From Squalus acanthias (lineage: Eukaryota), in contig JASTWF010000335.1 of assembly GCA_030390025.1 (NCBI GenBank), forward strand, positions 186,001 to 250,000: 64,000 nucleotides of DNA. Reading direction: 5' to 3'. The position numbers and the translations under genes are program-made. The notes beneath the pieces were generated by a model, which saw only the letters and a program-made list of their open reading frames with translations, did not search any database and was not told the origin of the DNA. The stretch's first letter is position 1. Every line of letters starts with the position of its first letter. Shown here piece after piece: positions 3,109 through 31,900 of the stretch.

Positions 3109-3594
3109 AGTTCCGCACCCATGAGGACAGCCTCTACCGGGATCTTGGGTTCATGTCACGCTACATGTAACCCCACCTGACGTAGAGTCATCCAGACTCG
3201 AGTCGTCGTTGGCTTGTTCTCTCTACACAGCTGCAGCCGGACCTGCTGTGATTTCCAGCAAAAAAAGTAAAAAGTTTTTTGTTTTCCATACAGACCCCAG
3301 CATCTGCCACATTTGACCCCTTGTGACCCCACCTCATTGTCTTTGATGTCATGTTTTCCTGACTGACCTGTTTGGTCACCATCCACACCTGTGATTGCCG
3401 TGATTATCTCTCTGCCGAGCTGTGATGAAGGGCAGTTGGAAAGATTAACTGTAGTCATCTGGCAGTGTTCTCTGACTATATATGCTGTGCCTATATGCAT
3501 CTCTTCACTTTACCTGACGAAGGAGCAGCGCTCCGAAAGCTTGTGATTTCAAATAAAGCTGTTGGACTATAACCTGGTGTTGTGCGACTTCTCA
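3109..3594 (+). mobile_element. Non-autonomous Penelope-like element with hammerhead-bearing terminal repeat
   Basis: 10-bp TSD CTGGAATACA (3099-3108 / 3595-3604). Begins with Penelope ORF C-terminus-like FRTHEDSLYRDLGFMSRYM*. Shares sequence with 6839-7158 and 28382-28839. Confidence 0.75.
3510..3546 (+). ncRNA. Minimal type-I hammerhead ribozyme motif (family A)
   Basis: TTAC-CTGACGA-A-GGAGC(AGC)GCTCC-GAAA-GC-TT-GTGA: stem I, catalytic core, stem II, palindromic vestigial stem III. Confidence 0.75.
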
Positions 3595-4149
3595 CTGGAA
3601 TACAGAAGGTTAAGGGCTGATTTGATTGAGTTTTTTTTTAGGATTTTGAAAGGAATTGATGGAGTTCGATAGAGGACACTTTTTCCACTGGTGGTGGAGG
3701 ATGGACAAGGGGGACATAACCTTAAAATCAGAGCCAGGCCATTCAGGAGAGAGGTTAGGAAACACTTCTTCACACAAAGAATGATCGAAGTGTGGAACTC
3801 TCTCCCACAGAAAGCAGTAAATGCTAGCTCAATTAATCACTTTAAATCTGAGATCGATAGATTTTTGCGAGCCCAGGGTAGAAAAGAATATGGAGCCAAG
3901 GCGGGTGGATGGAGTGAAGATGCAGATCAGCTGTGATCTCATTGAATGGCGGAACAGGCTCGAGGGGCTAAATGGCCTCCTCCTGTTCCTATGTTTAATG
4001 GTGAGCTTGAGGAATCAAATAAGTGGAGGAGGGGGGCGGGAATGGCGTCACGATCCTCTTCCCCCCACCACCGTCCCCAGGTAATGGTGAAAGAAGGGTC
4101 AGTTAGTCATTCGACAACAGCTTGTATTTATATAACGCCTTTAACGTAG

Positions 4150-4375
4150 TGCAGCTCTCCCTCAGTACTGCCCCTCTGACACTGCAGCGCTCCCTCAGCA
4201 CTGCCCCTCTGACACTGCAGCGCTCCCTCAGTACCTCCCCTCTGACAGTGTAGCGCTCCCTCAGAATTGAATGGCGTGTCAGCCTAGATTTTTGTGCTCA
4301 AGTCCCTGAACTGGGACATGAACTCACAAAATTCTGTCTCAATTGTGAGAGTGCGACCAACTGCGCCACTGCTGA
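4150..4375 (-). mobile_element. DeuSINE-like head with about 3 copies of the 33-bp unit
   Basis: Same head and unit as the other arrays. Confidence 0.75.
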
Positions 4376-4377
4376 CC

Positions 4378-5790
4378 CTTTTTAAGAACTGTCTTGAAGG
4401 AGAAGAGTGGCAGAGAGGTTTAGGGAGGGAATTCCAGCACGTAGGGCCCAGGTAGCTGAAGGCACGGCCTCCAATGGTGGAGCGATGGAAATTGGGCAAT
4501 GATTTCTGCACTTTGAAGGCTCGACTGGGTTACCCATTCTCCGAGGATCCTCCCCACCCACGAACACATTGCAGACATACCAGATCTTAGAATCTTCATT
4601 CGTGTCCATTTAATATTTAAGTACAGACAGAGTGTGAGCTCTCTCAGCAGGAGTACAAACACTCAATGCATTTAACATGGAGAGACATTTCAGCAATTGC
4701 AAATACTTTTCACCACGATAGTGCCTGAGTTTCAACAACAACAACAACTGGCATTTAAACAGCGCCTTTAACATAGTAAAAAGGCGCTTCACAGGAGCGA
4801 TTATCAAACACAAATTGACACCGAGCCACATATGCAGAAATTAGGACAGGTGACCAAAAGCTTGATCAAAGAGGCAGGTTTTGAAGGAGAGGAGAGAGGT
4901 GGAGAGGTTGAGGGAAGGAATTCCAGAGCTTTGGGCCTAGGCAACAAAAGGCACGGCCTGCAATGCTGGAGCGATCAAAATCGTGGGGATGCTTAAGAGG
5001 CCAGAATTGGAGGAGAGCTCAGAGATAGGGAGGGTTGTAGGGCTGGAGGAGGTTACAGAGATAGGGAGGTTTGTAGGGGCTGGAGGAGGTTACAGAGATA
5101 GGGAGGGTTGTAGGGGCTGGAGGAGGTTACAGAGATAGGGAGGGTTGTAGGGGCTGGAGGAGGTTACAGAGATAGGGAGGGTTGTAGGGGCTGGAGGAGG
5201 TTACAGCGATAGGGAGGGTTGTAGGGGCTGGAGGAGGTTACAGAGATAGGGAGGGTTGTAGGGACTGGAGGAGGTTACAGAGATAGGGAGGGTTGTAGGA
5301 CCTGGAGGAGGTTAAAGATAGGGAGGGTTGTAGGGGCTGGAGGAGGTTACAGAGATAGGGAGGATTGTAGGGGCTGGAGGAGGTTAGAGATAGGGAGGTT
5401 TGTAGGGGCTGGAGGAGGTTATAGAGATAGGGAGGGTTGTAGGACCTGGAGGAGGTTAAAGATAGGGAGGGTTGTAGGGCTGGAGGAGGTTACAGAGATA
5501 GGGAGGATTGTAGGGGCCGGAGGAGGTTAGAGATAGGGAGGGTTGTAGGGGCTGGAGGAGGTTAGAGATAGGGAGGTTTGTAGGGCTGGAGGAGGTTACA
5601 GAGATAGGGAGGATTGTAGGGGCCGGAGGAGGTTAGAGATAGGGAGGGTTGTAGGGGCTGGAGGAGGTTAGAGATAGGGAGGGTTGTAGCGGCTGAAGGA
5701 GATTACAGAGATAGGGAGGGGGGCGTGGGGGTGGGCGGGGGTCGAGGCCATGGACTGATTTGAAAACAAGGATGAGAGTTTTAAAATGTC
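4378..5790 (-). mobile_element. L2 LINE 3' fragments (4378-4500, 4735-5790)
   Basis: TIGGRAFSYLGPTCWNSLP peptide; (CAA)n tail on the plus strand near 4735. Confidence 0.75.
5020..5720 (+). repeat. About 37-bp minisatellite (GGGGCTGGAGGAGGTTACAGAGATAGGGAGGGTTGTA)n inside L2
   Basis: Tandem units of 34-37 bp; single-copy counterpart in the L2 at about 27585-27625. Confidence 0.9.
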
Positions 5791-5944
5791 ACCATTACGT
5801 AGCACCTCTGTAAACCCCAGGAACAGTCTTCTAGTCTCTGTCTTCGATGGACATCCAGCAATATTTTCAGCTGAAAGATTAGTTTGCCAAAAAAGGTAGG
5901 AATTGTTAATATTTGCAGCGCTAAAATGCAGTCGTCAGATCCAA

Positions 5945-7545
5945 TAAATTATCAAGAAGGCTAATAGAATGTTAGCTTTCATAACTGGAGGAGTAGAATA
6001 TAAAGGGGAGGACATTTTTGCAACAGCTGTACAAAGCCCTGGTTGGACCACCTCTGGAGTAGTGTGAGCAGTTTTGGGCACCTCATCTTAGAATGGAAAT
6101 AGTGACCTTGGAGGGAGTGCAGAGCAAATTCACTAGAATAGAAACATAGAAGATAGGAGCAGGAGTAGGCCATTCAGCCCCTCAAGCCTGCTCCGCCATT
6201 CAATGAGATCATAGCTGATCATCCAAACTCAGTACCCTGTCCCTGCCTTCTCCCCATATCCCTTGATACCTTTAGCTTTAAGAAATATATCTAACTCATT
6301 CTTGAATATATTTAATAAATTGGCCTCTACTGCCTTCTGTGGTAGAGAATTCCACAGGTTCACCACTCTCTGGGTGAAGAAATTCCTCCTCCTCTCAGTC
6401 CTAAATGGCTTACCCCTTATCCTTAGATTATGACCCCTGGTTCTGGACTCTGCATCTAGTCTGTCTAGTCCTGTTAGAATTTTATAAGTTTCAATGAGAT
6501 CCCCTCTCATTCTTCTAAACTCCAGCGAGTATAAGCCCAATCGACCCAATCTCTCCTCATACGTCATTCCTGCCATCCCAGGTATCAGCCTGGTGAATCT
6601 TCGCTGAACTCCTTCCATGGCAAGAACATCCTTCCTCAGATAAGGCGACCAAAACTGCACACAATACTCAAGGTGTGGTCTCACCAAGGCCCTGTACAAC
6701 TGCAGCAGGACATCCTTGTTCCTGTACTCGAACCCTTTCGCTACGAATGTTGGCAGGGCTCCAACTGTTAGATTATGAGGAGAGATTACATAAACTAGGC
6801 TTGTATTCCCCGGAATATAGAAGGTTAAGGGCTGATTTATGTGAGAAGTCACACAACACCAGGTTATAGTCCAACAGCTTTATTTGAAATCACAAGCTTT
6901 TGGAGCGCTGCTCCTTCACCTGACGAAGGAGCAGCGCTACGAAAGCTTGTGATTTCAAATAAAGCTGTGAGGTGGAGATGCCGGTGTTGGACTGGGGTGG
7001 ACAAAAGTGAGAAGTCGCACAACACCAGGTTATAGTCCAACAGAAGGGGCAGCAGCTCCGAAAGCTTGTGATTTCAAATAAAACTGTTGGACTATAACCT
7101 GGTGTTGTGCGACTTCTCACATTTGTCCACCCCAGTCCAACACCGTCATCTCCACATCAAGGGCTGATTTGATTGAGGTCTTTTAGGATTTTGAAAGGAA
7201 TTCATAGGGTTAGATAGAGAGAGACATTTTCCACTGGTGGGAGCAGTCTAGGACAAGGAGACATCACCTTAAAATCAGAACCAGGCCATTCAGGAGAGAA
7301 GATAGGAAACACTTCTACACGCAGAGGGTGGTCGAAGTGTGCAGCTCTCTCCCACATAAAGCAGCAAGATGCGAGCTCAGTGAATCATTTTAAATCTGAG
7401 ATCGATAGATTTTTGCTAGGCGAGGGTATAAAGAGATACGGAGCCAAGGCGGGTGGATAGAGTTCGGATACAGATCAGCCATGAGCTCACTGAGCGGCAG
7501 AACAGGCTCGAGGGGCTGAATGGCCTTCTCCTGTTCATATGTCTA
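5945..7545 (+). mobile_element. CR1 3' fragment hosting a nested antisense CR1 (about 6138-6745) and a Penelope-derived insert
   Basis: Host reads through ...ttcactagaat|gttggcaggg. The nested copy (ORF 6229-6852) is the same subfamily as 61137-61970. Confidence 0.8.
6839..7158. mobile_element. Insert made of inverted Penelope-type terminal-repeat fragments; hammerhead motif at 6916-6952 (+)
   Basis: 12-bp TSD AAGGGCTGATTT (6827-6838 / 7159-7170); two consecutive inverted-repeat cassettes. Confidence 0.75.
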
Positions 7546-7767
7546 CAAGTACTGACAACACTGAGCAGAGAACGAAGGCTGCAGTTGTGATGTGTAAGGA
7601 ATGATGAACATTTCTATTTGGAGATCTTTACATACTCACTTTAGACATTCCTGCGCCCCAGATCGTCCCATTAACATCAACATCCTCTTTTCCCTCATTT
7701 TCTCCCTTTCTCTTCTCATCCACATCTGGGTAATGGTTTCACTGGACAGCTCGCAGATTCCCACTGG

Positions 7768-8035
7768 TCTGTGTGTGTGTGTCTGTGAGTTTGAGTGGGT
7801 GTGTGTATGTGTGTAAGTGTGTGTGTGTGTATGAATGTGTGTGTGAGTGTATGTGTGTGTGTGTATGTGTGAGTGTATGAATGTGTGTGTGTGTGAGTGT
7901 ATGTGTGTGAGTGTATGTGTCTGAGTGTGTATGATTGTGTGTGTGTGAGTGTATATGTGTGTGTGCGTGTGTGTGTATATGTGTGTGTGCGTGTGCGTGT
8001 GTGTATATGTGTGTGTGCGTGTGTGTATATGTGTG

Positions 8036-8078
<43 letters not shown>

Positions 8079-8336
8079 GTGTGTGCGTGTGCGTGTGCGT
8101 ATATATGTGCGTGTGCGTGTGTGTGAGTGTATGTGTGAGTGTATGTGTGTGTCTGTGTCTGTGAGTGTGGGAGAGTGAGTGAGTTTGAGAGTGTGTGTGT
8201 GAGTTTCAGTGTGTGTGTGTGAGTGTATGTGTGAGTGTGTGTGTGAGTTTGAGGGTGTGTGTATGTGTGTGTGTGTGTATGACTGTGTGAGTGTGAGAGT
8301 TTGAGAGTGTGTGTGAGAGTGTGAGTGTGAGTGTGT
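7768..8336 (+). repeat. Degenerate (GT)n microsatellite; further tracts at about 10410-10600, 11412-11722 and 13280-13710
   Basis: Seen directly. Confidence 0.95.
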
Positions 8337-10395
8337 GAACATAAGAAGTAAGAGCAGGAGTCGGCCATACAGCCCCTCGAGCCTGCTCCGCTATTCAATA
8401 AGATCATGGCTGATCATCGACCTCAACACTTTCCCGCCCGATCTCCATACCCCTTGATTCCCCTAGAGTCCAAAAATCTATCGATCTCAGCCTTGAATAT
8501 ACTCAAAGACTGAGCATCCACAGCCCTCTGGGGCAGAGAATTCCAAAGATTCACAACCCTCTGAGTGAAGAAATTCTTCCTCATCTCAGTCTTAAATGGC
8601 CCAACTCTTATCCTGAGACTATGCCCCCTGGTTCTAGACTCTCCAGCCAGGGGGAAACAACCTCTCAGCATCTACCCTGTCAATCCCCTTCAGAATCTTG
8701 TATGTTTCAATGAGATCACCTCTCATTCTTCTAAACTCCAGAGAGTATAGGCCCATTCTACACAATCTCTCATCATAGGACAGCCCTCTCATCCCAGGAA
8801 TCAATCTAGTGAACCTTCGTTGCACCGCCTCCAAGGCAAGTATATCCTTCCTTAAATAAGGAGACCAGAACTGTGCACAGTACTCCAGCTGTGGTCTCAC
8901 CAAGGCCCTGTACAATTGTAGCAAGACTTCCTTACTCGTATACTCCAACCCCCTTGCAATAAAGGCCAATATGCCATTTGCCTTCCTTATTGCTTGCTGT
9001 ACCTGCATGCTAGCTTTCTGTGTTTCTTGCACGAGGACACCCAAATCTCTCTGAACACCAACTTTTGAAAGTTTCTCACCATTTAAAAAATATTGTTTTT
9101 CTATTCTTCCTACCAAAGTGAATAACCTCACATTTCCCTACATTATACTCTATCTGCCACCTTACTGCCCACTCACTTAGTCTATCTATATCCCTTTGCA
9201 GACTCTTTGTGTTCTCCTCACAGCTTACTGTCCCAGCTAGCTTTGTATCATCAGCAAACTTGGATACATTACACTTGGTCCCTTCATCTAGGTCATTAAT
9301 ATAGATTGTAAATAGCTGAGGACCCAACACTGATCCTTGCGTCACCCCACTAATTACAGCCTGCCAACCTGAAAAAGAACTGTTTATCCCTACTCTCTGT
9401 TTGCTGTCCGTTAACCAATCCTCCATCCATGCTACTATATTACCCCCAACCCCATGAGCCCTAATCTTGTGTAATAACCTTTTATGTGGCACCTTATCGA
9501 ATGCCTTTTGGAAATCCAAATATACTACATCCACTGGTTCTCCTTTATCTACCCTGCTAGTTACATCCTCAAAAAACTCGAATAAATTTGTCAAACACGA
9601 TTTCCCTTTCATAAAACCATGTTGACTCTGCCTAATCATATTATGATTTTCTAAGTGACTGGATACCACTTCCTGAAAAATGGATTCCAGCATTTTCCCA
9701 ACGACTGATGTCAGGCTAACTGGCCTGTAGTTCCCTGTTTTTTCTCTCCCTCCTTTCTTGAATAGTGGTGTTACATTTGCGACCTTCCAATCCACTGGAA
9801 CCTCTCCAGAATCTAGGGAATTTTGGAAGATCAAAACCAATGCATCCACTATCTCTTCAGCCACCTCTTTTAGAACCCTAGGATGTAGGCCGTCAGGTCC
9901 AGGTGATTTGTCTGGCTTTTAGTCCCATTAGTTTCTCTAGTACTTTTTCTCTACTTATATTCATTATGTTAAGTTCCTCACCCTCATTAGACCCTTGTTT
10001 ACCCTCCATTTTTGGTATGCTTTTTGTGTCTTCTACTGTGAAGACAGATACAAAATATTTGTTTAATGTTTCTGCCATTTCCTTATTCCCAATAATAATT
10101 TCTCCTGTCTCAGCCTCTGAGGGACCAATGTTTACTTTTTCTAATCTTTTCCTTTTTACATACTTGTAGAAACTCTTACAGTCTGCTTTTATATTTCTTG
10201 CTAGTTTTCTCTCATTCTATTTTTTCCCTTTTTATCAATTTTTTGGTCAACCTTTGCTGGTTTCTGAAACTCTCCCAATCCTCAGGCTTACTATTATTCT
10301 TTGCAAAATTATAAGCTTCTTCTTTCAATCTAATTCTATCCTTAACTTCTTTAGTTAGCCACGGTTGGATCTCTTTTCCCGTGGAGTTTTTGTTT
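8337..10395 (-). mobile_element. 5'-truncated CR1 LINE (RT domain, frameshifted)
   Basis: [20 protein letters not shown] and FADD motifs in ORF 9076-9864; tail at 8337. Confidence 0.93.
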
Positions 10396-10495
10396 CTCTG
10401 TTTGTCACTGAGTTTGGGAGTGTGTGTGAGTGTGTGAGTTTGAGAGAGTGTGTGTGAGGGTGTGTGTGTGTGTGTTTGAGAGAGTGAGTGAGTTT

Positions 10496-10544
<49 letters not shown>

Positions 10545-10613
10545 TTTGAGTCTTTGTGTGTGTGTGAGTTTGAGTGTGAGCATATGTGTGTATGTGTGAG
10601 TGTCAGTTACATT

Positions 10614-11378
10614 GGGCCAAAAATTCGGCCCTTGCCGGGTGAGTATGCGCTGTGTACTCACCCGTAAGACGTCCTGAAGTGCTGGTTTCCTGCATGCACT
10701 GTGCATGCGCGGGAAACCGGAACATCCGGTCTGCTGAAGGGAGCGGTTCAGAGGTGAACCGCGTGCGTGGGAGAGGCTGCGCGCACACAGCAAACTTAGG
10801 GTTTTTTTCAGGTTTCTACAGGAGGGTAAGTATTGAAGAACCTGTGCTTTTAAAAAGGAGGCGCAGGACCCGTTTTCAACAAGGTAAGTGGTTAATTAAT
10901 TATAATTAAAAAAAATTTCAACAGGTTTATCTTTTTTAGATACTTTAAAGAAAGGGAAGTATATTTTTAGCACTGTTAAAAAGTATTTTAATTTTTTCAA
11001 AAATTTAAATTTTTGTTTAAAGTAGTTAATTTATTTAACTTATAGTTATTTTATAAATGTGATGGTTTTTTAAAAAATGTATTTGAAGTTTAGGTGTTGT
11101 TTTGGGGCTGATTTCAATTCATAGATTTGACAGGTCTTCCTGTCAAATCTATGAATGAAAGATGGTCTGCTGCCATTGGCTCTCCATGGCCCACGTGATC
11201 CCAGGGGACGCATCACACTAACTACACCCCTGGGATACACAAGCACTGCACGCCGGCAGCTGCAGGAGGCCCAGGAGCTGAAGTTCCCCGTGGGCCAGAA
11301 GTCAACAGCAGGCGCGGTAGCTAAGTGCGCGCGCGATCCTTGCACCCACGGGAAGCCGGAGAGGCGAATTTCAGGGCC
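10614..11378. mobile_element. Non-autonomous DNA transposon, PIF/Harbinger-like
   Basis: 3-bp TSD ATT; imperfect TIR GGGCCAAAAATTCG / CGAATTTCAGGGCC; paralogous empty site at about 13533-13560. Confidence 0.75.
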
Positions 11379-11723
11379 ATTATAAACACAGCGGGAAGAT
11401 TCCCTCTGGTCTGTGTGTGTGTGAATGTGCCTGTGTGTCTGTCTGTCCGTGTGCCCATGTGAGAGCGTGTGTGAGTGCGTGTGTGTTTGTGTGAGTGGGT
11501 GTATGAATGTGAGTCTGTGTGTGTGTGTGTCTGTCTGTGAGTTTGAGTGGGTGTGTGAGCGTGTGTGTGTCTGTGAGTTTGAGTGTGTGTGTGAGTGAGT
11601 GAGTGTGTGTGTAAGTGTGTGTGAGTGTGTGAGTGCATGTGTGAGTGTGTGTATGTGTAATTGTGGGTGTGTGTGTGTGTGTGTGAGAGTTAGTGAGTTT
11701 GAGTGTGTGTGTGAGTGTATATA

Positions 11724-13276
11724 TGTTGAGATGGTGGCGGGTAGCATGCTGCGGGATGGAGTTGAGGACACTCGCGTCGAAGACAGAGTCTCGGTTAAGG
11801 AGATCTTCGAAGTGCTCCTTCCAGCAGGCACTGACTGCCTCTCTGTCCTTGATGAGTACCTCTCCGTTCTTGGCCCGCAGTGGGGTAGGACCTTGGGTGC
11901 TTGGGCCGTAGATGGTCTTGACTGCGCTAAAGAATCCACGCACATCACGGTTGTCGGCTAGCTGCTGGATCTCCTGCGCTTTCTCCGCACAACCCCAGCC
12001 CGGCATGAGGTTGAAAAGGCCATCCGACAACTGAAGAACAACAAGGCCTCAGGAGCAGATGGAATCCCCGCCGAGGCACTAAAGCATGGCGGAGAAGCAC
12101 TACTGGTGCGAATTCATGAACTAATTTCTCTTATCTGGAAGGAGGAGAGCATGCCAGGGGATCTCAGAGACGCCGTAATTGTGACCATCTTCAAGAAAGG
12201 TGACAAGTCCGATTGCGGTAATTACAGAGGAGTTTCTCTGCTGTCTGCCACAGGGAAAGTCATCACAAGAATCCTCCTCAATCTCCCAGTGGCTGAAGAG
12301 CTCCTCCCAGAGTCGCAATGCGGATTCCGCCCACGAAGGGGCACAATGGACATGATCTTCACCGCGCGTCAATTACAAGAGAAATGCAGGGAACAGCACC
12401 AACCGCTGTACATGGCCTTTTTTGACCTCACAAAGGCCTTCGACACTGTCAACTGTGAGAGATTATGGAGTGTCCTCCTCAAATTCGGCTGCCCTCAAAA
12501 GTTTGTCACCATCCTCCGCCTGCTTCACGACGACATGCAAGCCATGATCCTGACCAACGGTTCCACCACAGACCCAATTCACGTACGGACCAGGGTCAAG
12601 CAAGGCTGTGTCATCGCACCAACGCTCTTCTCGATCTTCCTTGCTGCAATGCTCCATCTCACCCTCAGTAATCTCCCCACTGGAGTGGAGCTAATTTACA
12701 CAACAAACAGGAAACTGTTCAACCTCCGTTGCCTCCAGTCCAGGTCCAAGGTCGTCCCATCCTCTGTCGTCGAATTACAGTATGCAGACGACGCTTGCGT
12801 CTGCGCTCACTCGGAGGTCGAACTCCAAACCATCGTCAACACCTTCACCGAAGCGTACGAGAGCATGGGCCTTACACTAAACATCCGTAAGACAAAGGTC
12901 CTCTACCAACCTGCCCCCGCCACACAGTACTGCCCCCCGATTATCAAAATCCACAACAAGGCCTTGGACAACGTGGACCACTTTCCATACCTCGGGAGCC
13001 TACTGTCAACAAGGGTAGATGTCGACGACGAAGTCCAACACCGCCTTCAGTGTGCCAGTGCAGCCTTCGGTCGCCTGAGGAAGAGAGTGTTTGAAGACCA
13101 GGTCCTCAAACCCGGCACTAAGCTCATGGTCCACAGAGCAGCAGTGATACCTGCTCTACTGTATGTCTCAGAGACATGGACCATGTACAGCAGGCACCTC
13201 AAAGCACTGGAGAGGTACCACCAACGCTGCCTCCGCAAGATCCTGCAAGTCCATTGGCAGGATAGGCACACCAACG
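11724..13276 (+). mobile_element. RTE-clade LINE fragment with inverted 5' segment (11724-11986 on the minus strand)
   Basis: ORF 12106-13326: GDKSDCGNYRGVSLL, FFDLTKAFD, VKQGCVIAP, YADD, YLGS, ALLYVSETWT. Confidence 0.9.
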
Positions 13277-14111
13277 GAGTGTGTGTGAGTTTGGGAGTGT
13301 GTGTGAGTTTGAGAGTGTGTGTGTGAGGGTGTGAGTGTGTGTATTAGTGTGTGTGAGTGAGAGTTTGAGAGAGTGTGTGAGAGTGAAAGTGAGAGTGTGT
13401 GAGTGAGTGTGAATGTGTGTGAGTTTGGGTGTGTGTGTGAGAGTTTGAGAGTGTGAGAATGAGTGAGTTTGAGTATGTGTGTGTGAGTTTGAGTGTGAGC
13501 ATATGTGTGTATGTGTGAGTGAGTGTGTGAGTGTCAGTTACATTATAAACACAGCGGGAAGATTCCCTCTGGTCTGTATGTGTGTGAGTGTGTGTGTATG
13601 TGTGAGTGTGTGTGAATGTGCCTGTGTGTCCGTGTGCCCATGTGAGAGCATGTGTGTGTGTGTATATATGTGTGAGTGTGCGTCAGTGTTTGTGTATGTG
13701 CGTGTGTGTCAGTGACATTATAAACACAGCAGGAAGATTCTCCCTGGTCTCTGCGAGATCAGCCATCTCGGCACATGTCCGGGGATTAGACCCTGGGCCT
13801 GTTGCCTGCTCTGGACAGCTCACTAAGTGAGCCACATTCATCGAATCATAGAATGGTTACAGCACGGAAGGAGGCCATTCGGCCCGTCGAGCCCGTGCCA
13901 ACTCTCAGCAAGTCCCACTCCCCCGCCCTTTCCCCGTAGCCCTGCAATTTTTTTTCCTTCAGATACTTATCCAACTCCCTTTTGAAAGCCGTGATTGAAT
14001 CTGCCTCCACCACCCTTTCAGGCAGTGCATTCCAGACCCTAACCACTCGCTGCGTAAAAAAGTTTTTTTCTTATGTCGCCTTTGGTTCTTTTGCCAAACA
14101 CCTTAAATCTG

Positions 14112-14210
14112 CAATAAAAACAGAAAATGCTGGAAATACTCAGCAGGTCAGGCAGCATCTGTGGAGAGAGAAACAGAGTTAACGTTTCAGGTCGATGACC
14201 CTTCGTCAGA
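14112..14210 (-). mobile_element. 99-bp Penelope terminal-repeat-derived insert
   Basis: 12-bp TSD ACCTTAAATCTG (14100-14111 / 14211-14222); matches about 28995-29093. Confidence 0.8.
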
Positions 14211-14212
14211 AC
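14178..14212 (-). ncRNA. Minimal type-I hammerhead ribozyme motif (family B)
   Basis: Minus strand GTT-CTGACGA-A-GGGTC(ATC)GACCT-GAAA-CG-TT-AAC. Confidence 0.7.
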
Positions 14213-16117
14213 CTTAAATCTGTGTCCTCTGGTTCTCGACCCTTCCGCCAATGGGAACAGTTTCTCTCGATCTACTGTGTCCAGACCCCTCATGATTTTG
14301 AACACCTCTATCAAATCTCCTCTCAACCTTCTCTGCTCTAAGGAGAACAACCCCAGCTTTCTCCAGTCTATCAACATAACTGAAGTCCCTCATCCCTGGA
14401 ATCATTCTCCTAAATTTTTTCTGCACCCTCTCGAAGGCCTTCACATCCTTCCTAAAGTGCGGTGCCCAGAATTGGACACAATACTCCAGTTGGGGCCGAA
14501 CCAGTGTTTTATACAGGTTTATCATAATTTCCACGCTTTTGTACTCTACACCTCTAATCATGAAGCCCAGGATCCCATAAGCTTTTTTAACCGCTTTCTC
14601 AACCTGCCCTGCCACCTTCAACAATTTGTGCACATATACCCCCAGGTCTCTCTGTTCATGCACCCCCTTTAGGATTATACCCTTTAGTTTATATTTCCTC
14701 TCCTCATTCTACCAAAATGTATCACTTCGCACTTTTCTGTGTTAAATTTCATCTGCCACGTGTCCGCCCATTCCACCAGCCTGTCTATGTCCTCTTGAAG
14801 TCTCTCACTATCCTCCTCACTGTTCACTATACTTCCAAGTTTTATGTCATCTGCAAATTTTGAAATTGTGCCCTGTAAACCCACATCCAACTCATTAATA
14901 TATATCAAAAAAAGCAGTGGTCCTAGTACCGACCCCTGGGGAACACCACTGTATACCTTCCTCCAGTCCAAAAAACTGTTCACCACTACTCTCTGTTTCC
15001 TGTCACTTAGCCAATTTCATATCCAGGCTGCCACTGTCCCTTTTATTCCAAGGGCTTCAACTTTGCTGGCAAGCCTATTATGTGGCACTTTGTCGAACGC
15101 CTTTTGGAAATCCATGTACACCACGTCAACCGCATTACCCTCATCAACCCTCTCTGTTACCTCATCAAAGAACTCAATCAAGTTAGTTAAACACGATTTG
15201 CCTTTAACAAATGCATGCTGGCTTTCCTTAATTAATCCACGCTTGTCCAAGTGACTGTTAATTTTGTCCCTGATTATTGTTTCTAAAAGCTTCCCCACTA
15301 CTGAGGTTAAACTGACTGGCCTGTAGTTGCTGGGTTTATCTTTACACCATTTTTTGAACAATTGAGCAATTCTCCAGTCCTCTGGCACCACCCCCGTTTC
15401 TAAGGGGGATTGGAAGATTATGGCCAGTACCTCCGCGATTTCTCAGTACCTCACTTCCCTCAGCGTCCTAGGATGCATCCCATCTGGTCCTGGTGACTTA
15501 TCTACTTTAAGTACAGCCAGCTTTTCTAGTACCTCCTCTTTATCAATTTTTATCCCATTCAGTATCTCCTCTACCTCCTCCTTCACGATGTCTATGGCAG
15601 CATCTTCTTCCTTGGTGAAGACAGATGCAAAGTACTCATTTAGCATCTCAGCCATATTCTCTGCCTCCATGCGTAGGTCTACATTTTGGTCCCTAATCGG
15701 CCCCACCCCTCCTCTTACTACCCGTTTACTATTTATATGCCTGTAGAAGACTTTTGGATTACCTTTTATGTTAGCTGCCATTCTATTCTCATACACTCTC
15801 TTTGCCCCTCTTATTTTCTTTTTCACTTCTCTGAACTTTCTATATTCAGCCTGATTCTCAGATGTATTCTCGACCGGACATCTGTCATACACGCTCTTTT
15901 TCTGCTGCATCTTAGTCTCTAACTCGTTCGTCATCCAGGGAGCTCTGATCTTAATTGCCCTACCTTTCCCCCTAGTGGGACTGTACCCGAACTATTTCCT
16001 CTTTAAAGGCAGCCCATTGTTCCATTGCAGTTTTGCCTGCCAATCTTTGATTGTTTTTACTATATCCTATTTCTCCCCTTTGTCGCTTTGTGTTCTTACC
16101 AGACAACTGTGAGCTCT

Positions 16118-16225
16118 TCACAACCGAAGGACATGTTTGCAGTAGAGCACAAAAACTGCAGATGATACGATGAATGAAACCATGGCAAAAAGCAGCAGCA
16201 CGCCTGTTATTGCGAATGATGCATG
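16118..16225 (-). CDS. Second MS4A-type TM4 exon (HASFAITGVLLLFAMVSFIVSSAVFVLYCKHVLRL*)
   Basis: Acceptor ttttattattcttttgcag, phase 0; TGA at 16120-16118; donor GTAAGA after 16100. GVLLLF..F.V...CK resembles MS4A TM4, and LYCKH parallels VYYKH in the 39.7-kb exon. Confidence 0.7.
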   Translation of the reverse strand, partial: HASFAITGVLLLFAMVSFIVSSAVFVLYCKHVLRL

Positions 16226-16254: not shown

Positions 16255-17105
16255 CATTCAAATCGCTGGTTAGGCCTCAGGGAAAGGGAATACACATTAA
16301 ATGGTAGGACACTGAGTAGTGTAGAGGAACAAAGGGACCTTGGAGTGCATGTCCACAGATCCCTGAAGGTAGCAGGCCAAGTAGATAAGGTGGTTAAGAA
16401 GGCATACGGGATACTTGCCTTTATTAGCCGTGGCACAGAATACAAGAGCAGGGGGGTTATGCTTCAACTGTATAATACACTAGTTAGGCCTCAGCTGGAA
16501 TACTGCGTGCAGTTCTGGTCACCACATTACAGGAAGGGTACAGAGGAGATTTACAAGGATGCTGCCGGGAGTAGAGAATCTTAGCTATGAGGAAAGACTG
16601 GATAGGCTGGGTCTGTTTTCCTTGGAACAGAGGAGGCTGAGGGGAGACCTTATTGAGGTGTATAAAATTGAGGGGCCTAGATAAATTGGATAGAAAGGAC
16701 CGGTTTCCCTTAGCAGAGGGGTCAAAAACCAGGGGGCACAAATTTAAAGTAATTGGGGGAAGGTTTAGAGGGGATTTGAGGGGAAATTTCTTCACCCAGA
16801 GGGTTGTGGGGGTCTGGAACTCGCTGCCTGAAAGGGTGGTAGAGGCAGGAACCCTAACCACATTTAAAAAGTACTTGGATGTGCACTTGGGATGCTCTAA
16901 CCTGCAGGGCTACGGACCAAGAGCTGGGAAGTGGGATTAGGCTGGATAGCTCTTTGTTGGCCGGCGCGGACACGATGGGCCGAAATGGCCTCCTTCCATG
17001 CTGTAACTTTCTATGATTCTCAGCTGGAGTAGTATATACTATTCTGGACACCATACTTTAGGAAGGATGTCAAGGCCTTGGAGATGGTGCAGAGGAGATG
17101 TAGCA
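16255..17105 (+). mobile_element. CR1 3' fragments
   Basis: LVRPQLEYCVQFWSP and FFTQRVVGVWNSLP peptides. Confidence 0.85.
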
Positions 17106-20513: not shown

Positions 20514-20713
20514 NNNNNNNNNNNNNNNNNNNNNNNNNNNNNNNNNNNNNNNNNNNNNNNNNNNNNNNNNNNNNNNNNNNNNNNNNNNNNNNNNNNNNNN
20601 NNNNNNNNNNNNNNNNNNNNNNNNNNNNNNNNNNNNNNNNNNNNNNNNNNNNNNNNNNNNNNNNNNNNNNNNNNNNNNNNNNNNNNNNNNNNNNNNNNNN
20701 NNNNNNNNNNNNN
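20514..20713. other. Assembly gap (200 N)
   Basis: N run. Confidence 1.
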
Positions 20714-23683: not shown

Positions 23684-23754
23684 TGGGGCCACTGGAATGT
23701 GGCGATATTTGCAGGAGAGAAGTCTGTAAACTCCCTGCTCCACAGTGAACCACT

Positions 23755-24815
23755 AATCAGCTGAGGTTTAGCACTCTCGACTCTGGATCCGAAGGTTGTG
23801 GGTTCATCTCCCACTCCAGAGACTTGAACACAAAGATCCAGTCTGTCACTCCAGTGCAATACTGAGGGAGCGCTGCACTGTTGGAGGGGCAATACTGAGG
23901 GGGCGCTGCACTGTTGGAGGGGCAATACTGAGGGAGCGCTGCACTGTCGGAGGGGCAGTACTGAGGGAGCGCTGCACTGTCGGAGGGGGCAGTACTGAGG
24001 GAGCGCTGCACTGTCGGAGGGGGCAGTACTGAGGGAGCGCTGCACTGTCGGAGGGGCAGTACTGAGGGAGCGCTGCACTGTTGGAGGGGCAATACTGAGG
24101 GAGCGCTGCACTGTCGGAGGGGCAGTACTGAGGGAGCGCTGCACTGTCGGAGGGGCAGTACTGAGGGAGCGCTGCACTGTCGGAGGGGCAGTACTGAGGG
24201 AGCGCTGCACTGTTGGTGGGGCAGTACTGAGGGAGTGCTGCACTGTCGGAGTGGCAGTACTGAGGGAGCACTGCACTGTCGGAGGGGCAGTACTGAGGGA
24301 GCGCTGCACTGTCGGAGGGGCAGTACTGAGGGAGCGCTGCACTGTCGGAGGGGCAGTACTGAGGGAGCGCTGCACTGTTGGTGGGGCAGTACTGAGGGAG
24401 TGCTGCACTGTTGGAGGGGCAGTACTGAGGGAGCGCTGCACTGTCGGAGGGGCAGTACTGAGGGAGCGCTGCACTGTCGGAGGGGCAGTACTGAGGGAGT
24501 GCTGCACTGTCGGAGGGGCAGTACGGAGGGAGCGCCGCACTGTCGGAGGCGGCGTAATTCGGATGAGACGTTAAACCGAGGCCCCGTCTGCCATCTCAGA
24601 TGGACGTAAAAGATCCCACGGCCACTATTTCAAAGACAAGCAGGGGAGTTCTCAATGCTGTTTGTGGGAGCTTGCTGTGCGCAAATTGGCTGCCGCATTT
24701 CCTACATTACAACAGCGACTACACTTCCAAAGTACTTCATTGGGTGTAAAGTGCTTTGGGACATCCTGACATCATGAAAGGCGGCTGTATAAATGCAAGT
24801 CTTTCTTTCTTCCTT
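23755..24815 (+). mobile_element. DeuSINE/SacSINE1-like SINE with internal 33-bp array (about 23855-24548)
   Basis: tRNA-like head, Deu-like core (gggagcttgctgtgcgcaaattggctgcc), tail ataaatgcaagtctttctttc. Confidence 0.85.
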
Positions 24816-24874
24816 TATGATTTGTATCGGCAAACTTGTTCGGAAATTGGAGAGCGACGCGAACGGCAGATCGA

Positions 24875-26569
24875 GTTAAACAGGTCCAATTTACTTTATT
24901 GTGTATAATTTAACGAGCTTTTAAATACAGAAGACAAAGTAAAGCACAGCTCGCGCCTCTTAAAGCACCTTTTTTGCGACAAGATTCGATCTGTGTCTTC
25001 GAACTGCAACCAGCTTAATTTGTCGAACCCGTCGGGGTGTTTTTTAAATAATAAAGCGCACCGGGTTTATCCTGTGTCCAACAAACGGAAGATATTCCCG
25101 CAGAGAAAGAGTTTTCGAAGATCAAAATTCTTCTGGGAGATTCGCTATTGTTCCGCTCACAGGAGGGGGCGAGATGAAGTGTTGAGGAAATGGGACGGCT
25201 TCTGTACTTTTCTTTCCCCAAGGTCCTCCCCGGTGGTGGGGTCAAGGGTTAAAGTTCAGAACCATCACCCCCCCCCGGCACTGGTTCGCCCCGCCTGTTC
25301 TGAAGGAGCTGACCGCACGCACCCTCCTGGGCACCCACCTGCTTTGGGAGGGGTTGGGGGCTGCTGGATAGTGATCAGGGGCAGCAGTCGATTGCCGAGC
25401 TTTCTTCCTCCCGCCCCCCCCGACCTCGTTCCCCTCGCCCAGGAGTTTCTGTAACAGGCTGCCCTGGCCCCAGTCTGAGCCTGAAACCCATTAGCGCCGC
25501 ACATGTTTTACAGCAGTGTCATCAAACATTAACAGTGTGAATGTGGGAGTCTGGACAACAGTTCTGTTACCCCACCCCCAAGTAAAAAAAACTGGCAATT
25601 TGGATTTTTTTTTAAGAGAGTGAGAGAGACAGAGCGAGAGAGTGGAGAGAGACAGAGAGAGGCTGAGAGAGACAGAGCGAGAGAGTGGGAGAGAGACAGA
25701 GAGGCAAAGAGAGACAGAGTGAGAGAGACAGAAAGATAGAGTGAGAGAGACAGAGAGAGAGAGTGGGAGAGAGACAGAGAGGCAAAGAAAGACAGAGTGA
25801 GAGAGCGACAGAGAGTGGGAGAGAGTGAGAGCGAGGCAGAAAGACGGAGAGTGGGAGACAGAGAGAGGTAGAGAGAAAGAGAGAGAGGCAGAGAGAGAGA
25901 GAGGCAAAGAGAGAGTCAGAGAGAGACAGAAAGATAGAGAGAGTGACAGACAGACAGAGAGTGAGAGAGAGAGGCAGAGAGAGAAACAGAGACCTCAAAA
26001 CGTACAAGAGGCCATGAAAAATGAGCAGAAAGCGAAGCTGGGAACGGCTGCCTGTGCAAGGTGAGGGGCAAACTGTCGTGAGCCTCCAATCCCTCTGCCC
26101 CCCCCCCCTCCCTCCCCAGTTAAAGGCCAACGAGTAGGAGGGAAATGGCAGGTGGGTGACTCACATCCTGGGAACACGGGTGGAGGGAGGGCTGCTGTTT
26201 ACTGGGAGGGGAGGCGGGGGGAGAGCTGTCCAGTGTCTTAGGGCGAGAAGCCCGAGGGACGATAGTGACCATCACACCCGCCCTGCCCGGAGACGTCCAA
26301 TTCTCGGGCTACGTCGCATCAGGTTAACGTTCAATATTTAACTAACTACAAAGCTCTCTCGGCGGGGTACAAAAAATGAACAGGCGCAACATTAAACCTC
26401 ATACTACAGCAGCAAAGGCAAGATGTGTTTCACAGTAATGGGCAGATGGCTTCTCCCTCTTCCGCGCCCAATGTCCGAGGACAGCAGGCGCCCGGGGCAG
26501 GTCCGGGTCGGGAAGGCCCCTCTGGTGCGCTGGCTGCTAATGGTGATGGTGTCTCCTCAATCTGGGGTG
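24875..26569 (-). other. Probable terminal exon / 3' UTR of the MS4A-like gene
   Basis: Acceptor tttgttttcaacag before 26569; about 1.7 kb of mostly non-TE sequence ending with minus-strand AATAAA at 24900-24895. Reading frame unresolved: phase 0 gives HPRLRRHHHH*, phase 1 gives a 46-aa Pro-rich tail ending at 26430. Confidence 0.45.
25615..25992 (+). repeat. Degenerate (AG)n microsatellite
   Basis: Seen directly. Confidence 0.95.
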
Positions 26570-26579
26570 CTGTTGAAAA

Positions 26580-27950
26580 CAAACGACAACTTATGTTTAC
26601 ACAGCGGCACTTAATCTCGTAAAACGTCCCCAGGCGCTTCACAGGGGCGATTGTCACACAAGGTTTGGCACCGAGCCACACAAGGAGAGATCAGGACAGG
26701 TGACCGAAAGCTTGGTCAAAGAGATAGGGCTGGATTTTGATACTGGGACGGGTTGGGGTCGTGTTGTCCACCCGCCTGCAATTGGATGTGGGAGATTGAT
26801 GCAATTTTCACTTAATTGGGCAATTGAGTTCCAGCATGTGGGAACCCATGACCCAATTAGTGGTTTCAGTCTGAAAGTCGCCTCTGATGATGTCATCATT
26901 GCAGGTCAGCGACTGCTTCGTCTCAGAGACTGCCTGGCCTTTGCTGTGAGAGGACCTGGATGCAAAATGAGCAGCATCTCAGAGAGAGAAGAGAGAATTC
27001 TTTTGCAACCAAGTCCTCCCAGGCAGTCTCTGGAGACATTCAATGCAGGAGCATCAGAGGCGACTTTCAGACCTAATACTACTACTACCTTCATCACATC
27101 TCCGTTGTAATAGGGGACCTGCAGCTGATAGTCAGCTATCCACTTGTGCTCCCGCCAGGTTTCACTGGCGTGTTTCACACCAGGCGTGCTTCACGTGAGA
27201 AAAGGGTTAAACTAGCTAAAACGTTTCAAAATGGCATTACAGAGCCAATTTAGGGCTTGTTAAGGGCTTTAATGGCCTCTCCCGCCGCTTGGAGGCGGGA
27301 CGGAGTCGGGACCCCCGAATCTGCAACTTTAACCCCCCCACACGCCTCCAAACCCGACTCCACGGGTCATTGAAAATCCAGCCCGTAGGGTTTAAGGAGC
27401 ATCTTAAGAACGTAAGAAATAGGAGCAGGAGTCGGCCATTTAAAGGAGGAGAGGGAGGCGGATAGATTTAGAGAGGGAATTCCAGAGCTCAGGGGCCCAG
27501 GCAGCTGAAGGCACGGCCGCCAATGGTGGAGCGATGGAAATCGGGGGATGCGCAAGAGGCCAGAATTGGAGGAGCGCCGAGATCTGGGAGAGTTGTGGGG
27601 CTCAAGGAGATTACAGAGATAGGGAGAGAGGGGGGGGGGGGGGGCGAGGCCATGGAGGGATTTGAAAACGAGGATGGAGGATTTTAAATATGGAGGCGTT
27701 GCTTAACGGGGAGCCAATGTCGGTCGGCGAGCACAGGGGAGATGGGCGAGCGGGACTTGGTGCGAGTTAAGATATGGGGTTAGCAGAGTTTTGGATGAGC
27801 GGATGGCTACGGAGGGTGGAAGGTGGGAGGCCGGCCAGGAGAGCGTTGGAATAGTCGAGTCTGGAGGTAACAAAGGGCAGGGACGAGGGTTTCAGCAGCG
27901 GATGAGCTGAGGCAGGGGTGGAGACGGGCGAGGTTACGGAGGTGGAAGTG
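26580..27950 (-). mobile_element. L2 LINE 3' fragment interrupted by a MITE
   Basis: FHLRNLARLHPCLSSSAAETLV peptide; L2-type 3' tail. Confidence 0.78.
26727..27384 (+). mobile_element. Harbinger-type MITE copy 2
   Basis: Same TIRs; flanks ATA/GTA. Confidence 0.85.
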
Positions 27951-28077
27951 GAAACAGAGTGCCGTCACATGTAAAAAAGGAACGAGAGCCATGGGAAGAG
28001 AGCGAGACGGCGGGAAATGAAGCCAGTCGCTGCCCAGCGAGCTTCCCGCACCCGCAGAACCGCACAGTGCACAAATC

Positions 28078-28962
28078 AAAGAAAGTTACGGCACAGGAGG
28101 AGGCCATTCGGCCCATCGTCTCTGTGCCAGTCGAAAAAGAGCGATCCCAGCCTAATCCCACCTTCCAGCTCTTGGTCTTTCCAGCCACCTGTAGGTTACT
28201 TCAAGTGCATATCCAAGTACTTTTTAAACGTGATGAGGGTTTCTGCCTCTACCACCCTTTCAGGCAGTGAGTTCCAGACCCCTCACCCTCTGGGTGAGAA
28301 AAAATCTCCTCAAATCCCCTCTAAACCTTTTACCAATGACTTTAAATCGATGATCGCTGGTTATTGACCTCTCTGCTAAGGTGTGGAGATGCCGGTGGTG
28401 TTGGACTGGGGTGGACAAATGTGAGAAGTCGCACAACACCAGGTCATAGTCCAACAGCTTTATTTGAAATCACAAGCTTTCGGAGCGCTGCTCCTTCGTC
28501 AGGTGAAGTGAAGAGATGCATATAGGCACAGCATATATAGTCAGAGAACACTGCCAGGTGACTACAGTTAATATTTCTAACTGCCCTTTATCACAGCTCG
28601 GCAGAGAGATAATCACGGCAATCACAGGTGTGGATGGTGTCCAAACAGGTCAGTCAGGAAAACATGACATCAAAGACAAGAAAGATTAACTGTAGTCACC
28701 TGGCAGTGTTCTCTGACTATATATGCCGTGCCTATATGTATCTCTTCACTTCACCTGACGAAGGAGCAGCGCTCCGAAAGCTTGTGATTTCAAATAAAGC
28801 TGTTGGACTATAACCTGGTGTTGAGCGACTTCTCACATTTCTCTGCTAAGGGAAATTGGTCCTTCCTGTCCACTCTATCTCGGCCCCTCATCATTTCATA
28901 CACCTCAATCAAGTCACCCCTCAGCCTCTTCTGTTCCAGAGAAAACAACCCCAGCCTACCCA
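28078..28962 (-). mobile_element. CR1 3' fragment hosting a Penelope-derived insert
   Basis: CR1 3' UTR hairpin region and ORF2 end. Confidence 0.75.
28382..28839. mobile_element. Penelope-derived insert with inverted terminal repeats; hammerhead motifs at 28470-28506 (-) and 28751-28787 (+)
   Basis: TSD TCTCTGCTAAGG (28370-28381 / 28840-28851); inverted arms of about 165 bp. Confidence 0.8.
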
Positions 28963-28964
28963 AT

Positions 28965-31900
28965 AACAAAATACTGTGGCTGCTGGACTCTGAAATAAAA
29001 ACAGAAAATGCTGGAAGTACTCAGCAGGTCAGGCAGCATCTGTGGAGTGAGAAACAGAGTTAACGTTTCAGGTCTGTGACCTTTCGTCAGAACAGGAAAA
29101 AGTTAAGAGATGGAACAGATTTTAACTAGGTGCGGAGGCAGGGAGAGGGGGGAGGGGAGGAAAGAACAATAGGGAAGGTCTGTGATAGGGTGGAAGGCAG
29201 GAGAGATTAAATGTTGCAAATGGGAATGGTAGAATCATCAACAGCTCCCGCCTGAAAAAATAGGGGCCGAGGTTATGGTCTGAACTTGTTGAACTCGATG
29301 TTGAGTCCAGAAGGCTGTAAAGTGCCGAATCGAAAGATGAGGTGCTGTTCCTCGAGCTTCATTGGAACAGTGTAAGAGGCCGAGGACGGTGAGGTCTGAG
29401 TGGGAGTGGAGCGGAGAATTAAAGTGACAGGCGACCAGAAGCTCGGGGTCACCCTTACGGACTGAACGGAGGTGTTCCAGCAAAGCGGTCACCCAATCTG
29501 CGTTTGGTCTCCCCAGTGTAGAGGAGACCACATCGTGAGCAGCAAATACAGTATACTAGATTGCAAGAGGTATAAGTAAATCGCTGTTTCACCTGGAAGG
29601 AGTGTTTGGGGCCCTGGAGAGTAGGAAGGGAGGAGGTAAAAGGGCATCTCCTGCGCTTGCACGGGAAGGTGCCGTGGGGAGGGGAGGGGGTGTTGGGGGT
29701 GATTGAGGAGTGGACCAGGGTGTCGCGGAGGGAGCGATCCCTTCGGAACGCTGAAAGGGGAGGTGAGGGGAAGATGTGTTTGGTGGTGGGATCACGCTGG
29801 AGGTGGCGGAAATGGCGGAGGATGATCCGTTGAATGTGGAGGCTGGTGGGGTGAAAGGTGAGGATAAGGGGAACCTTATCATGGTCCTGGGAGGGAGGGG
29901 AAGGGGTGAGAGCAGAAGTGCGGAAATGGAACGGACGAGGGCCGTGCCAACCACGGTCGAGGGGAATCCTCGGTTGAGGAAAAAAGAAGACATATTGGAA
30001 GCACTGGTATGGAAGGTGGACCAGTGGACGCATTGGTTGTCATCTTCCAAAATTCTATAGATTCTGGAACAGTTCCTGCAGATTGGAGGATTGCAAATGT
30101 AACCCCGCTATTTAAGAAAGGAGGGAGAGAGAAAACGGGGAACTACAGACCTGTTAGCCTCACATCAGTAGTTGGGAAAATGCTGGAATCTATCATAAAG
30201 GATGCAATAACTGGGCACTTAGAAACTAATAGTAAGATTGGGCAGAGTCAACACGGATTTATGAAAGGGAAATCCTGTTTGACAAACCTATTGGAGTTCT
30301 TTGAGGATGTAACTAGTGGAGTAGACAAAGGGGAGCCGGTAGATGTGGTGTATCTGGATTTTCAGAAGGCCTTCATAAGGTCCCACACAAGAGGTTGGTG
30401 AACAAAATTAGGGCACATGGAATTGGGGGTAATATACTAGCATGGATTGAGAATTGGTTAACAGACAGAAAACAAAGAGTAGGGATAAACGGGTCTTTTT
30501 CAGGATGGCAGGCTGTGACTAGTGGGGTACTGCAAGGATCGGCGCTTGGGCCCCAGCCATTCACAATCTATATCAATGATTTGGATGAGGGGACTAAATG
30601 TAACATTTCCAAATTTGTTGATGATACAAAGCTAGGTGGCAGTGTCAGTTGCGAAGAGGATGTGAAGAGGCTTTAAGGGGATCTCGACAGGCTCAGTGAG
30701 TGGGCGAGAACATGGCAGATGGAATATAATGTGGATAAATGTGAAGTTATCCACTTTGGTAGAAAAAACAGAAAGGCAGAGTATTTCCTAAATGGTGGAA
30801 GATTGGGGAATGCAGATGCTCAAAGGGACCTGGGTGTCCTTGTACATGAGTCACTGAAAGTGAATGTGCAGGTGCAGCAAGCCATTAGGAAGGCAAATGG
30901 TATGCTGGCCTTCATTACAAGAGGATTTGAGTACAGGAGTAAAGAAGTCTTACTCCAATTATATAGGGCCTTGGTGAGACCATACCTGGAGTACTGTGTA
31001 CAATTTTGGTCTCCTTACCTAAGGAAGGATATACTTGCCATAGAGGGAGTGCAACGAAGGTTCACAAGATTGATTCCTGGGATGGCAGGACTGTCGTATG
31101 AGAAGAGATTGAGTAAACTAGGCCTGTATTCTCTTGAATTCAGAAGAATGAGAGGGGATCTCATTGAAGCATACAAAATTATTACAGGGCTTGATAGGAT
31201 GGATGCTGGGAGAATGTTTCCCTTGGCTGGGGAGTCGAGAACAAGCAGCCACAGCCTCAAGATAAAGGGTAGGCCATTCAGGACTGAGATGAGAAGAAAT
31301 TTCTTCACACAGAGGGTGGTGAATCTTTGGAATTCTCTACCCCAGAGGGCTGTGGAGGCTCAGTCATTGGGTATATTCAAAACAGAAGTCGATAGATTTC
31401 TGACTAGTAAGGGCATCAAGGGATATGGCGATAGGGCCGGTGAATGGAGTTGAGGCAGAAGATCAGCCATCATCTCATTGAATGGTGGAGCAGGCTCGAA
31501 GGGCCGAATGGCCTACTCCTGCTCCTATTTCTTATGTTCTTATGTAAGGTGGCATCGTCAGAACAGATGCAACGGAGATGGGAGAAACTGGGAGAATGGA
31601 ATAGAGTCCTTACAGGAAGCGGGGTGGGAGGAAGTGTAGTCCAGGTAGCTGTGGGAGTCAGTGTGCTTATGGTGAATGTTTGTTGATAGCCGATCCCCAG
31701 AGATGGAGACAGAGAAGTTGAAGAAGGGAAGGGAAGGGAAGAGTCAGAATTCTGACAGCAGGGGGAAGACTCCTGGCCAAAGAAGTGGTCACAGAGATGA
31801 AGGCGACGGCATCAGGCCGAGCTCGAAAGTCATTGCGATGGGGGGCGTAAGGGGATGAAGCTCAGGCCTTTGCTGAGGACTGATGGTTCGGGATCAGAGA

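Follow-up and report, generated by a model that had tools for sequence, protein, structure and literature searches.

Minimal type-I hammerhead motifs in a Squalus acanthias contig probably mark end copies of Penelope-like elements

Hammerhead motifs of two families

The window analyzed here is a stretch of 64,000 nucleotides of the shark Squalus acanthias (assembly GCA_030390025.1, contig JASTWF010000335.1, positions 186,001 to 250,000 of the forward strand). It is a mosaic of CR1-type long interspersed nuclear element (LINE) fragments, with matches to RVT_1 and endonuclease domains, and of minisatellites; about 22 kb of the window matched one reference CR1 copy. Six hammerhead ribozyme motifs of two families (A and B) and one decayed motif had been predicted in it and interpreted as non-autonomous, retrozyme-like RNAs mobilized by Penelope-like elements (PLEs). 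All six motifs (6/6) were found in the sequence at the predicted coordinates and strands. Family A consists of A1 (3510-3546, plus strand), a minimal type-I motif with one C>T substitution in stem I giving a U-G pair and with predicted cleavage after 3542; A2b (6916-6952, plus), which has one stem II mismatch and lies inside a long fold-back hairpin; and the intact minimal motifs A3 (28470-28506, minus) and A4 (28751-28787, plus). Family B consists of the minimal motifs B1 (14178-14212, minus; predicted cleavage after 14181) and B2 (29059-29093, minus), the latter located in a 3' pseudo-long terminal repeat (pLTR). The decayed motif near 3175-3220 was present as well, with C3 at 3177 and with A9 and the GAAA box broken; it belongs to an insertion termed element C. 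The G10.1-C11.1 pair is present in the four family A motifs and in element C; its place is taken by G-U in B1 and by A-U in B2.

The search proposed with the original prediction was carried out on the window with a descriptor consisting of CUGAnGA, an optional extra base, stem II of at least 4 bp, GAAA, at most 4 nt, UH and stem I of at least 3 bp. It returned five matches with no stem II mismatch and six with one allowed, which were exactly the predicted motifs, as compared to a mean of 0.007 and 0.03, respectively, and a maximum of 1 in 300 local dinucleotide shuffles. The CUGAnGA, GAAA and UH core in type I topology was found in all six motifs and not in element C. In each of the six, one additional A follows CUGACGA and the predicted scissile bond lies after position +29 counted from C3. 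The cleavage-site triplets are CUU and GUU; with U17, cleavage would be slow. The predicted palindrome at stem III was confirmed as a 4-nt palindrome, AGCU in four motifs and ACGU in two. A further CTGACGA at 31561 (minus) was rejected as a hammerhead, being coding sequence of the insertion that carries B2.

A gapless alignment of the six motifs (37 columns) showed that 96% of the cells of the named structure pair, compared with 15-46% in slid controls. Between families A and B, 8 of the 11 named pairs changed on both sides, which represents two families and thus two data points, not six independent events. The claim that the stems of the two families are unrelated did not hold for stem II as a whole, which has 2/5 pairs in common. 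Among the 40 best-supported of 192 variant rows, those that fell within the motifs all concerned loop II, with two substitutions in family B and two insertions in family A. Pattern scans of DNA gave 0 loci in viral, metagenome and prokaryote genome contigs.

That the motifs arose by chance within repeats is scarcely credible. An Rfam scan of the window, also proposed earlier, gave no hammerhead match at E<=1, only three weak non-hammerhead matches, and the hammerhead fold is not favoured in context; both observations would fit a chance origin. However, six motifs were found where 0.03 were expected, the same geometry with compensated stems occurs in two families, and the motifs occupy the pLTR position known from published elements.

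Insertions that carry the motifs

The motifs and element C are carried by six insertion events: A1, A2, A3/A4, B1, the nested element C and B2. Insertion A1 (3109-3594, plus) is the 5'-truncated end of a family A PLE and consists of an open reading frame (ORF) stub, element C, a 3' untranslated region, the pLTR and a short 3' end. It lies in a CR1 3' end and is flanked by an exact 10-bp target site duplication (TSD; 3099-3108 and 3595-3604). Element C (3179-3321, plus), a pLTR and tail related to family B (76% over 87 nt), is nested in A1 between 13-bp near-TSDs with one mismatch (3166-3178 and 3322-3334), so that C3 of its decayed hammerhead, at 3177, is supplied by the target. Insertion A2 (6839-7158; exact 12-bp TSD, 6827-6838 and 7159-7170) is composed of four pLTR pieces of alternating orientation, 6839-6917 (minus), 6914-6968 (plus), about 6969-7043 (minus) and 7043-7158 (plus), which fold into long hairpins. 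Insertion B1 (14112-14210, minus) is a 99-bp pLTR copy extending from the 5' edge of the hammerhead to a short 3' end; its exact 12-bp TSD (14100-14111 and 14211-14222) includes two of the three bases on the 5' side of stem I. Insertion A3/A4 (28382-28839; exact 12-bp TSD, 28370-28381 and 28840-28851) consists of two head-to-head, 5'-truncated copies, A3 with a long tail (28382-28679, minus) and A4 with a short end (28680-28839, plus). Finally, B2 (28965-31985, minus) is a decayed, internally deleted PLE with a 3' pLTR and a long tail, flanked by 12-bp near-TSDs with one mismatch (28953-28964 and 31986-31997). A CR1-type LINE fragment of about 1.5 kb with its own 12-bp near-TSD (30020-31540, plus) is nested in B2.

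When the inserts A1, A2, A3/A4 and B1 were deleted in silico, the flanks aligned over the junction to other CR1 copies. A shared word of at least 10 bp was found in 24 of 1000 random control intervals. Four short carriers with TSDs of 10-12 bp had been predicted; the exact duplications of 10, 12, 12 and 12 bp agree with this, but the motifs at 28470 and 28751 turned out to be the two arms of a single insertion. The carrier of the motif at 29059 is not short, as it spans 3.0 kb and includes coding remains. Likewise, the description of the carriers as essentially non-coding did not hold for A1, which opens with PLE codons and contains a nested element, nor for B2 with its ORF remains.

As a separate observation, the 5' end of A3 (28679) corresponds to position 3337 in A1, two bases beyond the right-hand near-TSD of element C; before element C was inserted, this site lay some 10 nt downstream of the ORF stop. 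This may be a coincidence or a breakpoint hot spot.

Linkage of the motifs to Penelope-like coding sequence

Two broken PLE ORFs lie upstream of hammerhead B2 and inside the same TSD. The first (29279-30019, minus) encodes the end of the thumb, a cysteine linker and a GIY-YIG endonuclease and is interrupted by frameshifts. The second (31582-31937, minus) consists of an N-terminal piece (31937-31749) joined to a thumb piece (31734-31582), the reverse transcriptase (RT) core being deleted. A 147-residue piece of B2 had 18 relatives at E<=0.001, the best three of which, ray and shark proteins, were 63-67% identical. Full-length family B relatives carry RVT_1 and GIY-YIG. Among the relatives, both domains were found on P0009, P0012 and P0004, RVT_1 on P0029 and P0037, and GIY-YIG below the cut-off on P0023. 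The CX2-5CxxC linker is degenerate, of CxxxxC type, in B2 and intact in the relatives of both families.

Insertion A1 begins with the last 20 codons and the stop of a PLE RT/GIY-YIG ORF (3109-3170, plus), the first base of the first codon being located in the TSD. Of the 20 residues, 17 are identical to the C-terminal end of P0029, an RT protein that also contains a CX2-5CxxC linker and motifs of GIY-YIG type. The stub matched a 106-residue representative (E 3e-6), which led to 34 relatives; a 40-residue query gave no candidate, a second phmmer match (P0021) was dropped, being a repeat protein without relation to it, and no match emerged when the stub was aligned directly and locally with the family B relatives. 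In the C-terminal region, identity between the family A and family B proteins is about 27-30%, and the named relatives of both come almost all from sharks and rays. Hammerheads B2 and A1 are thus located downstream of PLE ORF ends within one TSD, i.e., in the pLTR of a PLE. A weak tblastn match at 16508-17053 was rejected as a PLE because it is CR1 DNA, and Pfam matches to HigB and LT-IIB, below the cut-off, were rejected as spurious.

Pieces of the family A endonuclease were also noticed in annotated shark isoforms (P0030, P0031, P0043, P0048, P0054 and P0055) of XRCC5, PPP1R12A-like, septin 5a, FSTL5, USP8 and FAM204A, as a result of either exonisation or an annotation artefact.

Two classes of 3' ends

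In both families, two alternative 3' ends lie about 30-40 nt apart. Counted from C3, the family A ends fall at +81 to +89 or at +120/121, and the family B ends at +98 (B1) and +126 (B2). Four sequencing runs were aligned to 28680-29600, namely three contig sets and a raw DNA run with 33 reads; the two DNA contig sets placed 54,514 and 95,616 contigs on this region. In these two sets, the match of hundreds of contigs to the B repeat breaks off at 28993/28994, beyond which they have unrelated A/T-rich flanks (agreement 0.37-0.38), while others continue at 28989 with the tail. Each of the three contig sets contained abundant family B endonuclease sequence, at a depth a few-fold lower than that of the pLTR, with contig depth not being equal to copy number. 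An optional tail of 30-40 bp is known in PLEs (PMC8557442; PMC3846280), and in the anole element the tail lies between two RT start sites (PMC11167929).

Two further features of the pLTR were observed. At 29047, hundreds of contigs share the downstream B pLTR and diverge over the hammerhead side, which suggests further sister families. A pyrimidine tract followed by CAG, resembling a 3' splice acceptor, is found after the hammerhead in both families (29040-29062, 14159-14181 and about 28404-28425, all minus); in family B an ATG follows directly and opens a frame into the tail. The acceptor-like tract and the ATG may represent the intron end of the pLTR and the ORF start, as in Penelope.

Positions of the 5' ends

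The 5' ends of ten fragments were located relative to C3 (-405, -177, -75, -6, -3, +1 to +3, +6, +6, +46 and about -1375). Nine of the ten fragments span the scissile bond, and none of the ten starts at +30, the position expected for the start of a cleaved RNA. Five of the ten ends lie within -6 to +6.

Regarding the origin of this cluster, the shortest carriers (B1, element C and parts of A2) could be complete copies of a PLE 5' leader or of a short pLTR RNA. The RNA would start just upstream of the hammerhead core, and the RT would start in the tail, about 100-130 nt in, and run off the 5' end. This refines the explanation of the carriers as PLE end copies and does not replace it; we hold it tentatively, as a possible though not the expected case. 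The cluster of five ends has a binomial P of 3e-5 to 5e-4 under exponential nulls, or of 8e-4 to 0.015 after a 30-fold window correction, and counting insertion events (3/6) gives a P of about 0.01. However, the nulls were ad hoc and the window was picked after the data had been seen; the ends are spread over 12 nt, two of them (+6) fall within the core, a single insertion contributes three, and the exact positions of the ends are obscured by microhomology at the junctions. In each of the three contig sets, contig depth on A4 falls several-fold on the upstream side of the core, but depth is no copy number and divergence between subfamilies, clearly the cause of the drop upstream of B2, may also account for this one. 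The pLTR of Penelope contains an internal promoter and a start site (PMC2377424) and the RT of the anole element starts 111-118 nt into the ORF (PMC11167929), both of which are in line with leader copies. Conversely, ends of this kind would also be expected from stalling at a hairpin or from fold-back at stem II.

Origin of the carriers

The original prediction of PLE-type minimal hammerheads with a palindromic helix III that were retrotransposed is supported by the geometry of the motifs, the TSDs and the linkage to PLE ORFs. We consider it likely that the motifs are minimal type-I hammerheads in the pLTRs of two endonuclease-bearing, Neptune-type PLE families (three with element C), and that the carriers are dead-on-arrival insertion products. 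Several points weigh against this explanation. No full-length copy and no 5' pLTR were found within the window, family B lacks the G10.1-C11.1 pair, and Rfam recognized no hammerhead. The Neptune-type label comes from the CX2-5CxxC linker, which marks both Neptune and Nematis (PMC8557442), and the RT core is deleted in the window. Finally, random truncation does not predict the clustering of 5' ends.

The insertions suggest the following course of events. A GIY-YIG endonuclease would cut the target with a stagger of 10-13 nt, as the lengths of the TSDs indicate. Downstream of the hammerhead, the RT would have two start sites, separated by about 30-40 nt, and a copy would acquire either a short end or a long tail; both classes of end were observed, and the start sites are proposed by analogy with the anole element (PMC11167929). 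The RT would then copy uncleaved RNA through the hammerhead, consistent with the fragments that span the scissile bond. It would halt early or reach the 5' end of the RNA, often with a strand switch that would produce the head-to-head pairs observed.

The second part of the original prediction, that the carriers are separate non-autonomous RNAs which cut themselves in dimeric form, become circular and rely on PLE enzymes for insertion in trans, is very unlikely to be correct. Short non-coding carriers with TSDs and a core intact in six of seven motifs are what such RNAs would leave. A preprint argues for an origin of animal retrozymes from pLTRs and reports such elements from the single cartilaginous fish genome in its sample (Li et al., 2026; bioRxiv 2026.07.22.740005), and in a rotifer the pLTR sequence alone can drive insertion in trans. 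However, none of the six motifs has an intact partner in direct tandem within the window, permuted units were not found there, and none of the ten 5' ends lies at the cleavage site. The carriers vary in length, two of five reach into PLE coding sequence, and the motifs are of the minimal form, whereas described retrozymes have the canonical type I (PMC7229834). Because neither tandem hammerheads nor 5' ends at the cleavage site were found, the retrozyme label is not supported and the carriers are better described as PLE end copies. Given that the preprint detected retrozymes in the only cartilaginous fish it covered, other parts of the genome may contain tandem forms. Mobilization in trans of a short leader RNA may apply to B1, element C and A2.

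Folding and likely activity

When the motifs were folded in context, the probability of stem I was at most 0.04 in all six, and stem II was kept at all three context lengths only in B2. For this reason the hammerheads at these loci are, according to the folding model, probably inert. Minimum-energy dimers computed with RNAcofold did not reproduce the active dimer fold, a method that cannot model the core. Published minimal hammerheads of this kind showed no cleavage as single motifs and little as dimers (PMC4209133), and the anole PLE ribozyme required protein and was dispensable for insertion in vitro (PMC11167929). Dimer cleavage was also addressed in work by Lunse et al., cited in PMC6765202. 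By analogy with these systems (PMC4209133; PMC11167929), the ribozyme of the parent element would act as a dimer joined at the 4-bp palindrome, with weak cleavage that is probably aided by protein.

Insertion sites and composition of the window

All five insertions located directly in host DNA (3109-3594, 6839-7158, 14112-14210, 28382-28839 and 28965-31985) map to 37136-37280 of the reference CR1, a stretch of 145 nt near the 3' end of ORF2, at different bases and in both orientations. In simulations that drew on all CR1 coverage, the P of this clustering was 0.0003, and it was 0.007 when only the last 780 nt were considered, the test being post hoc. The host CR1 copies are more diverged (64-69% identity to the reference, as compared to 70-81% for many others); as they belong to a more diverged CR1 group, the clustering may owe much to age and to the short length of the hosts. 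A literature search on CR1 target preference gave nothing describing these families.

The remainder of the window is rich in tandem repeats. A 33-bp minisatellite forms seven arrays on both strands (1-1217, 4150-4264, 23856-24549, 40009-41996, 51046-51636, 58298-59020 and 59880-60433). Other arrays have units of 32, 37, 39 and 43 bp, of which the 37- and 43-bp units recur at separate places. The tandem units at 45085-45729 (39 bp) and 39238-39515 (98 bp) resemble pieces of CR1 coding sequence. Assembly gaps of 200 bases each lie beside minisatellites at 20514-20713 and 43896-44095.

Relation to known systems and significance

The motifs closely resemble the minimal hammerhead ribozymes described in the pLTRs of metazoan PLEs (Cervera and De la Pena, 2014; PMC4209133). 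Both have type I topology, the CUGAnGA and GAAA boxes, an additional base between 9 and 10.1, a palindrome at 15.2-16.2 and a short helix I. The extra A after the core, which had been thought possibly to affect activity, is thus present as predicted (6/6) but is not peculiar to these motifs, being a conserved trait of the published class. In that work, too, several consensus families occur per genome, mostly as single motifs with some opposite-strand pairs 100-700 bp apart, and both arrangements were already ascribed to truncated PLEs. The motifs described here differ in a helix II of 5 bp, compared with 7-8 bp in Schistosoma, and in the family B pair at 10.1-11.1. Cartilaginous fish are not named in the consulted parts of the main text or in two supplement files of that article.

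The families share RT, cysteine linker and C-terminal GIY-YIG with Neptune-clade PLEs (Craig et al., 2021, PMC8557442; Arkhipova et al., 2013, PMC3846280). Moreover, Neptune-type insertion units likewise show 5' truncation, an adjoining inverted copy, a 30-40-bp tail at one end and a short TSD, which measures 8-10 bp in rotifer PLEs and 10-13 bp here. Poseidon PAc of Anolis carolinensis (Frangieh et al., 2024; PMC11167929) also has two 3' ends, corresponding to two RT start sites, and its inserted copies retain an uncleaved hammerhead. PAc, however, belongs to the Penelope/Poseidon clade and is described there without the zinc linker that is present in the families studied here, and its ORF starts in stem II, where no ATG is found in the motifs described here. 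The carriers resemble animal non-LTR retrozymes (Cervera and De la Pena, 2020, PMC7229834; Li et al., 2026, bioRxiv 2026.07.22.740005) in being short, mostly non-coding and related to pLTRs with a type I hammerhead. Retrozymes are, however, described as direct tandem repeats with one hammerhead per unit and a circular RNA, whereas the carriers are solo or inverted, of variable length and tailed, and two are joined to an ORF. No published description of these shark PLE families was found in a literature search that covered few subscription journals and neither Repbase nor Dfam.

These results add shark families to the known class of PLE hammerheads and replace the retrozyme label with that of PLE end copies. 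The one reconstituted PLE inserts from uncleaved RNA (PMC11167929), and the copies described here agree with this. The positions of copy ends offer a cheap genomic read-out of where the RT starts and stops. A more speculative and rather doubtful proposal is that the RNA of cartilaginous-fish PLEs starts a few bases upstream of the hammerhead core, that leader copies of about 100 nt are inserted alone or as fold-backs, and that two unrelated PLE families may prefer a 145-nt stretch of CR1 3' ends as their target. If true, leader copies would be a built-in, SINE-like (short interspersed nuclear element-like) by-product that records the start site, with the ribozyme remaining uncut during insertion. 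Should the cluster of 5' ends mark the RNA start, or the CR1 bias hold genome-wide, the model of PLE transposition would be refined.

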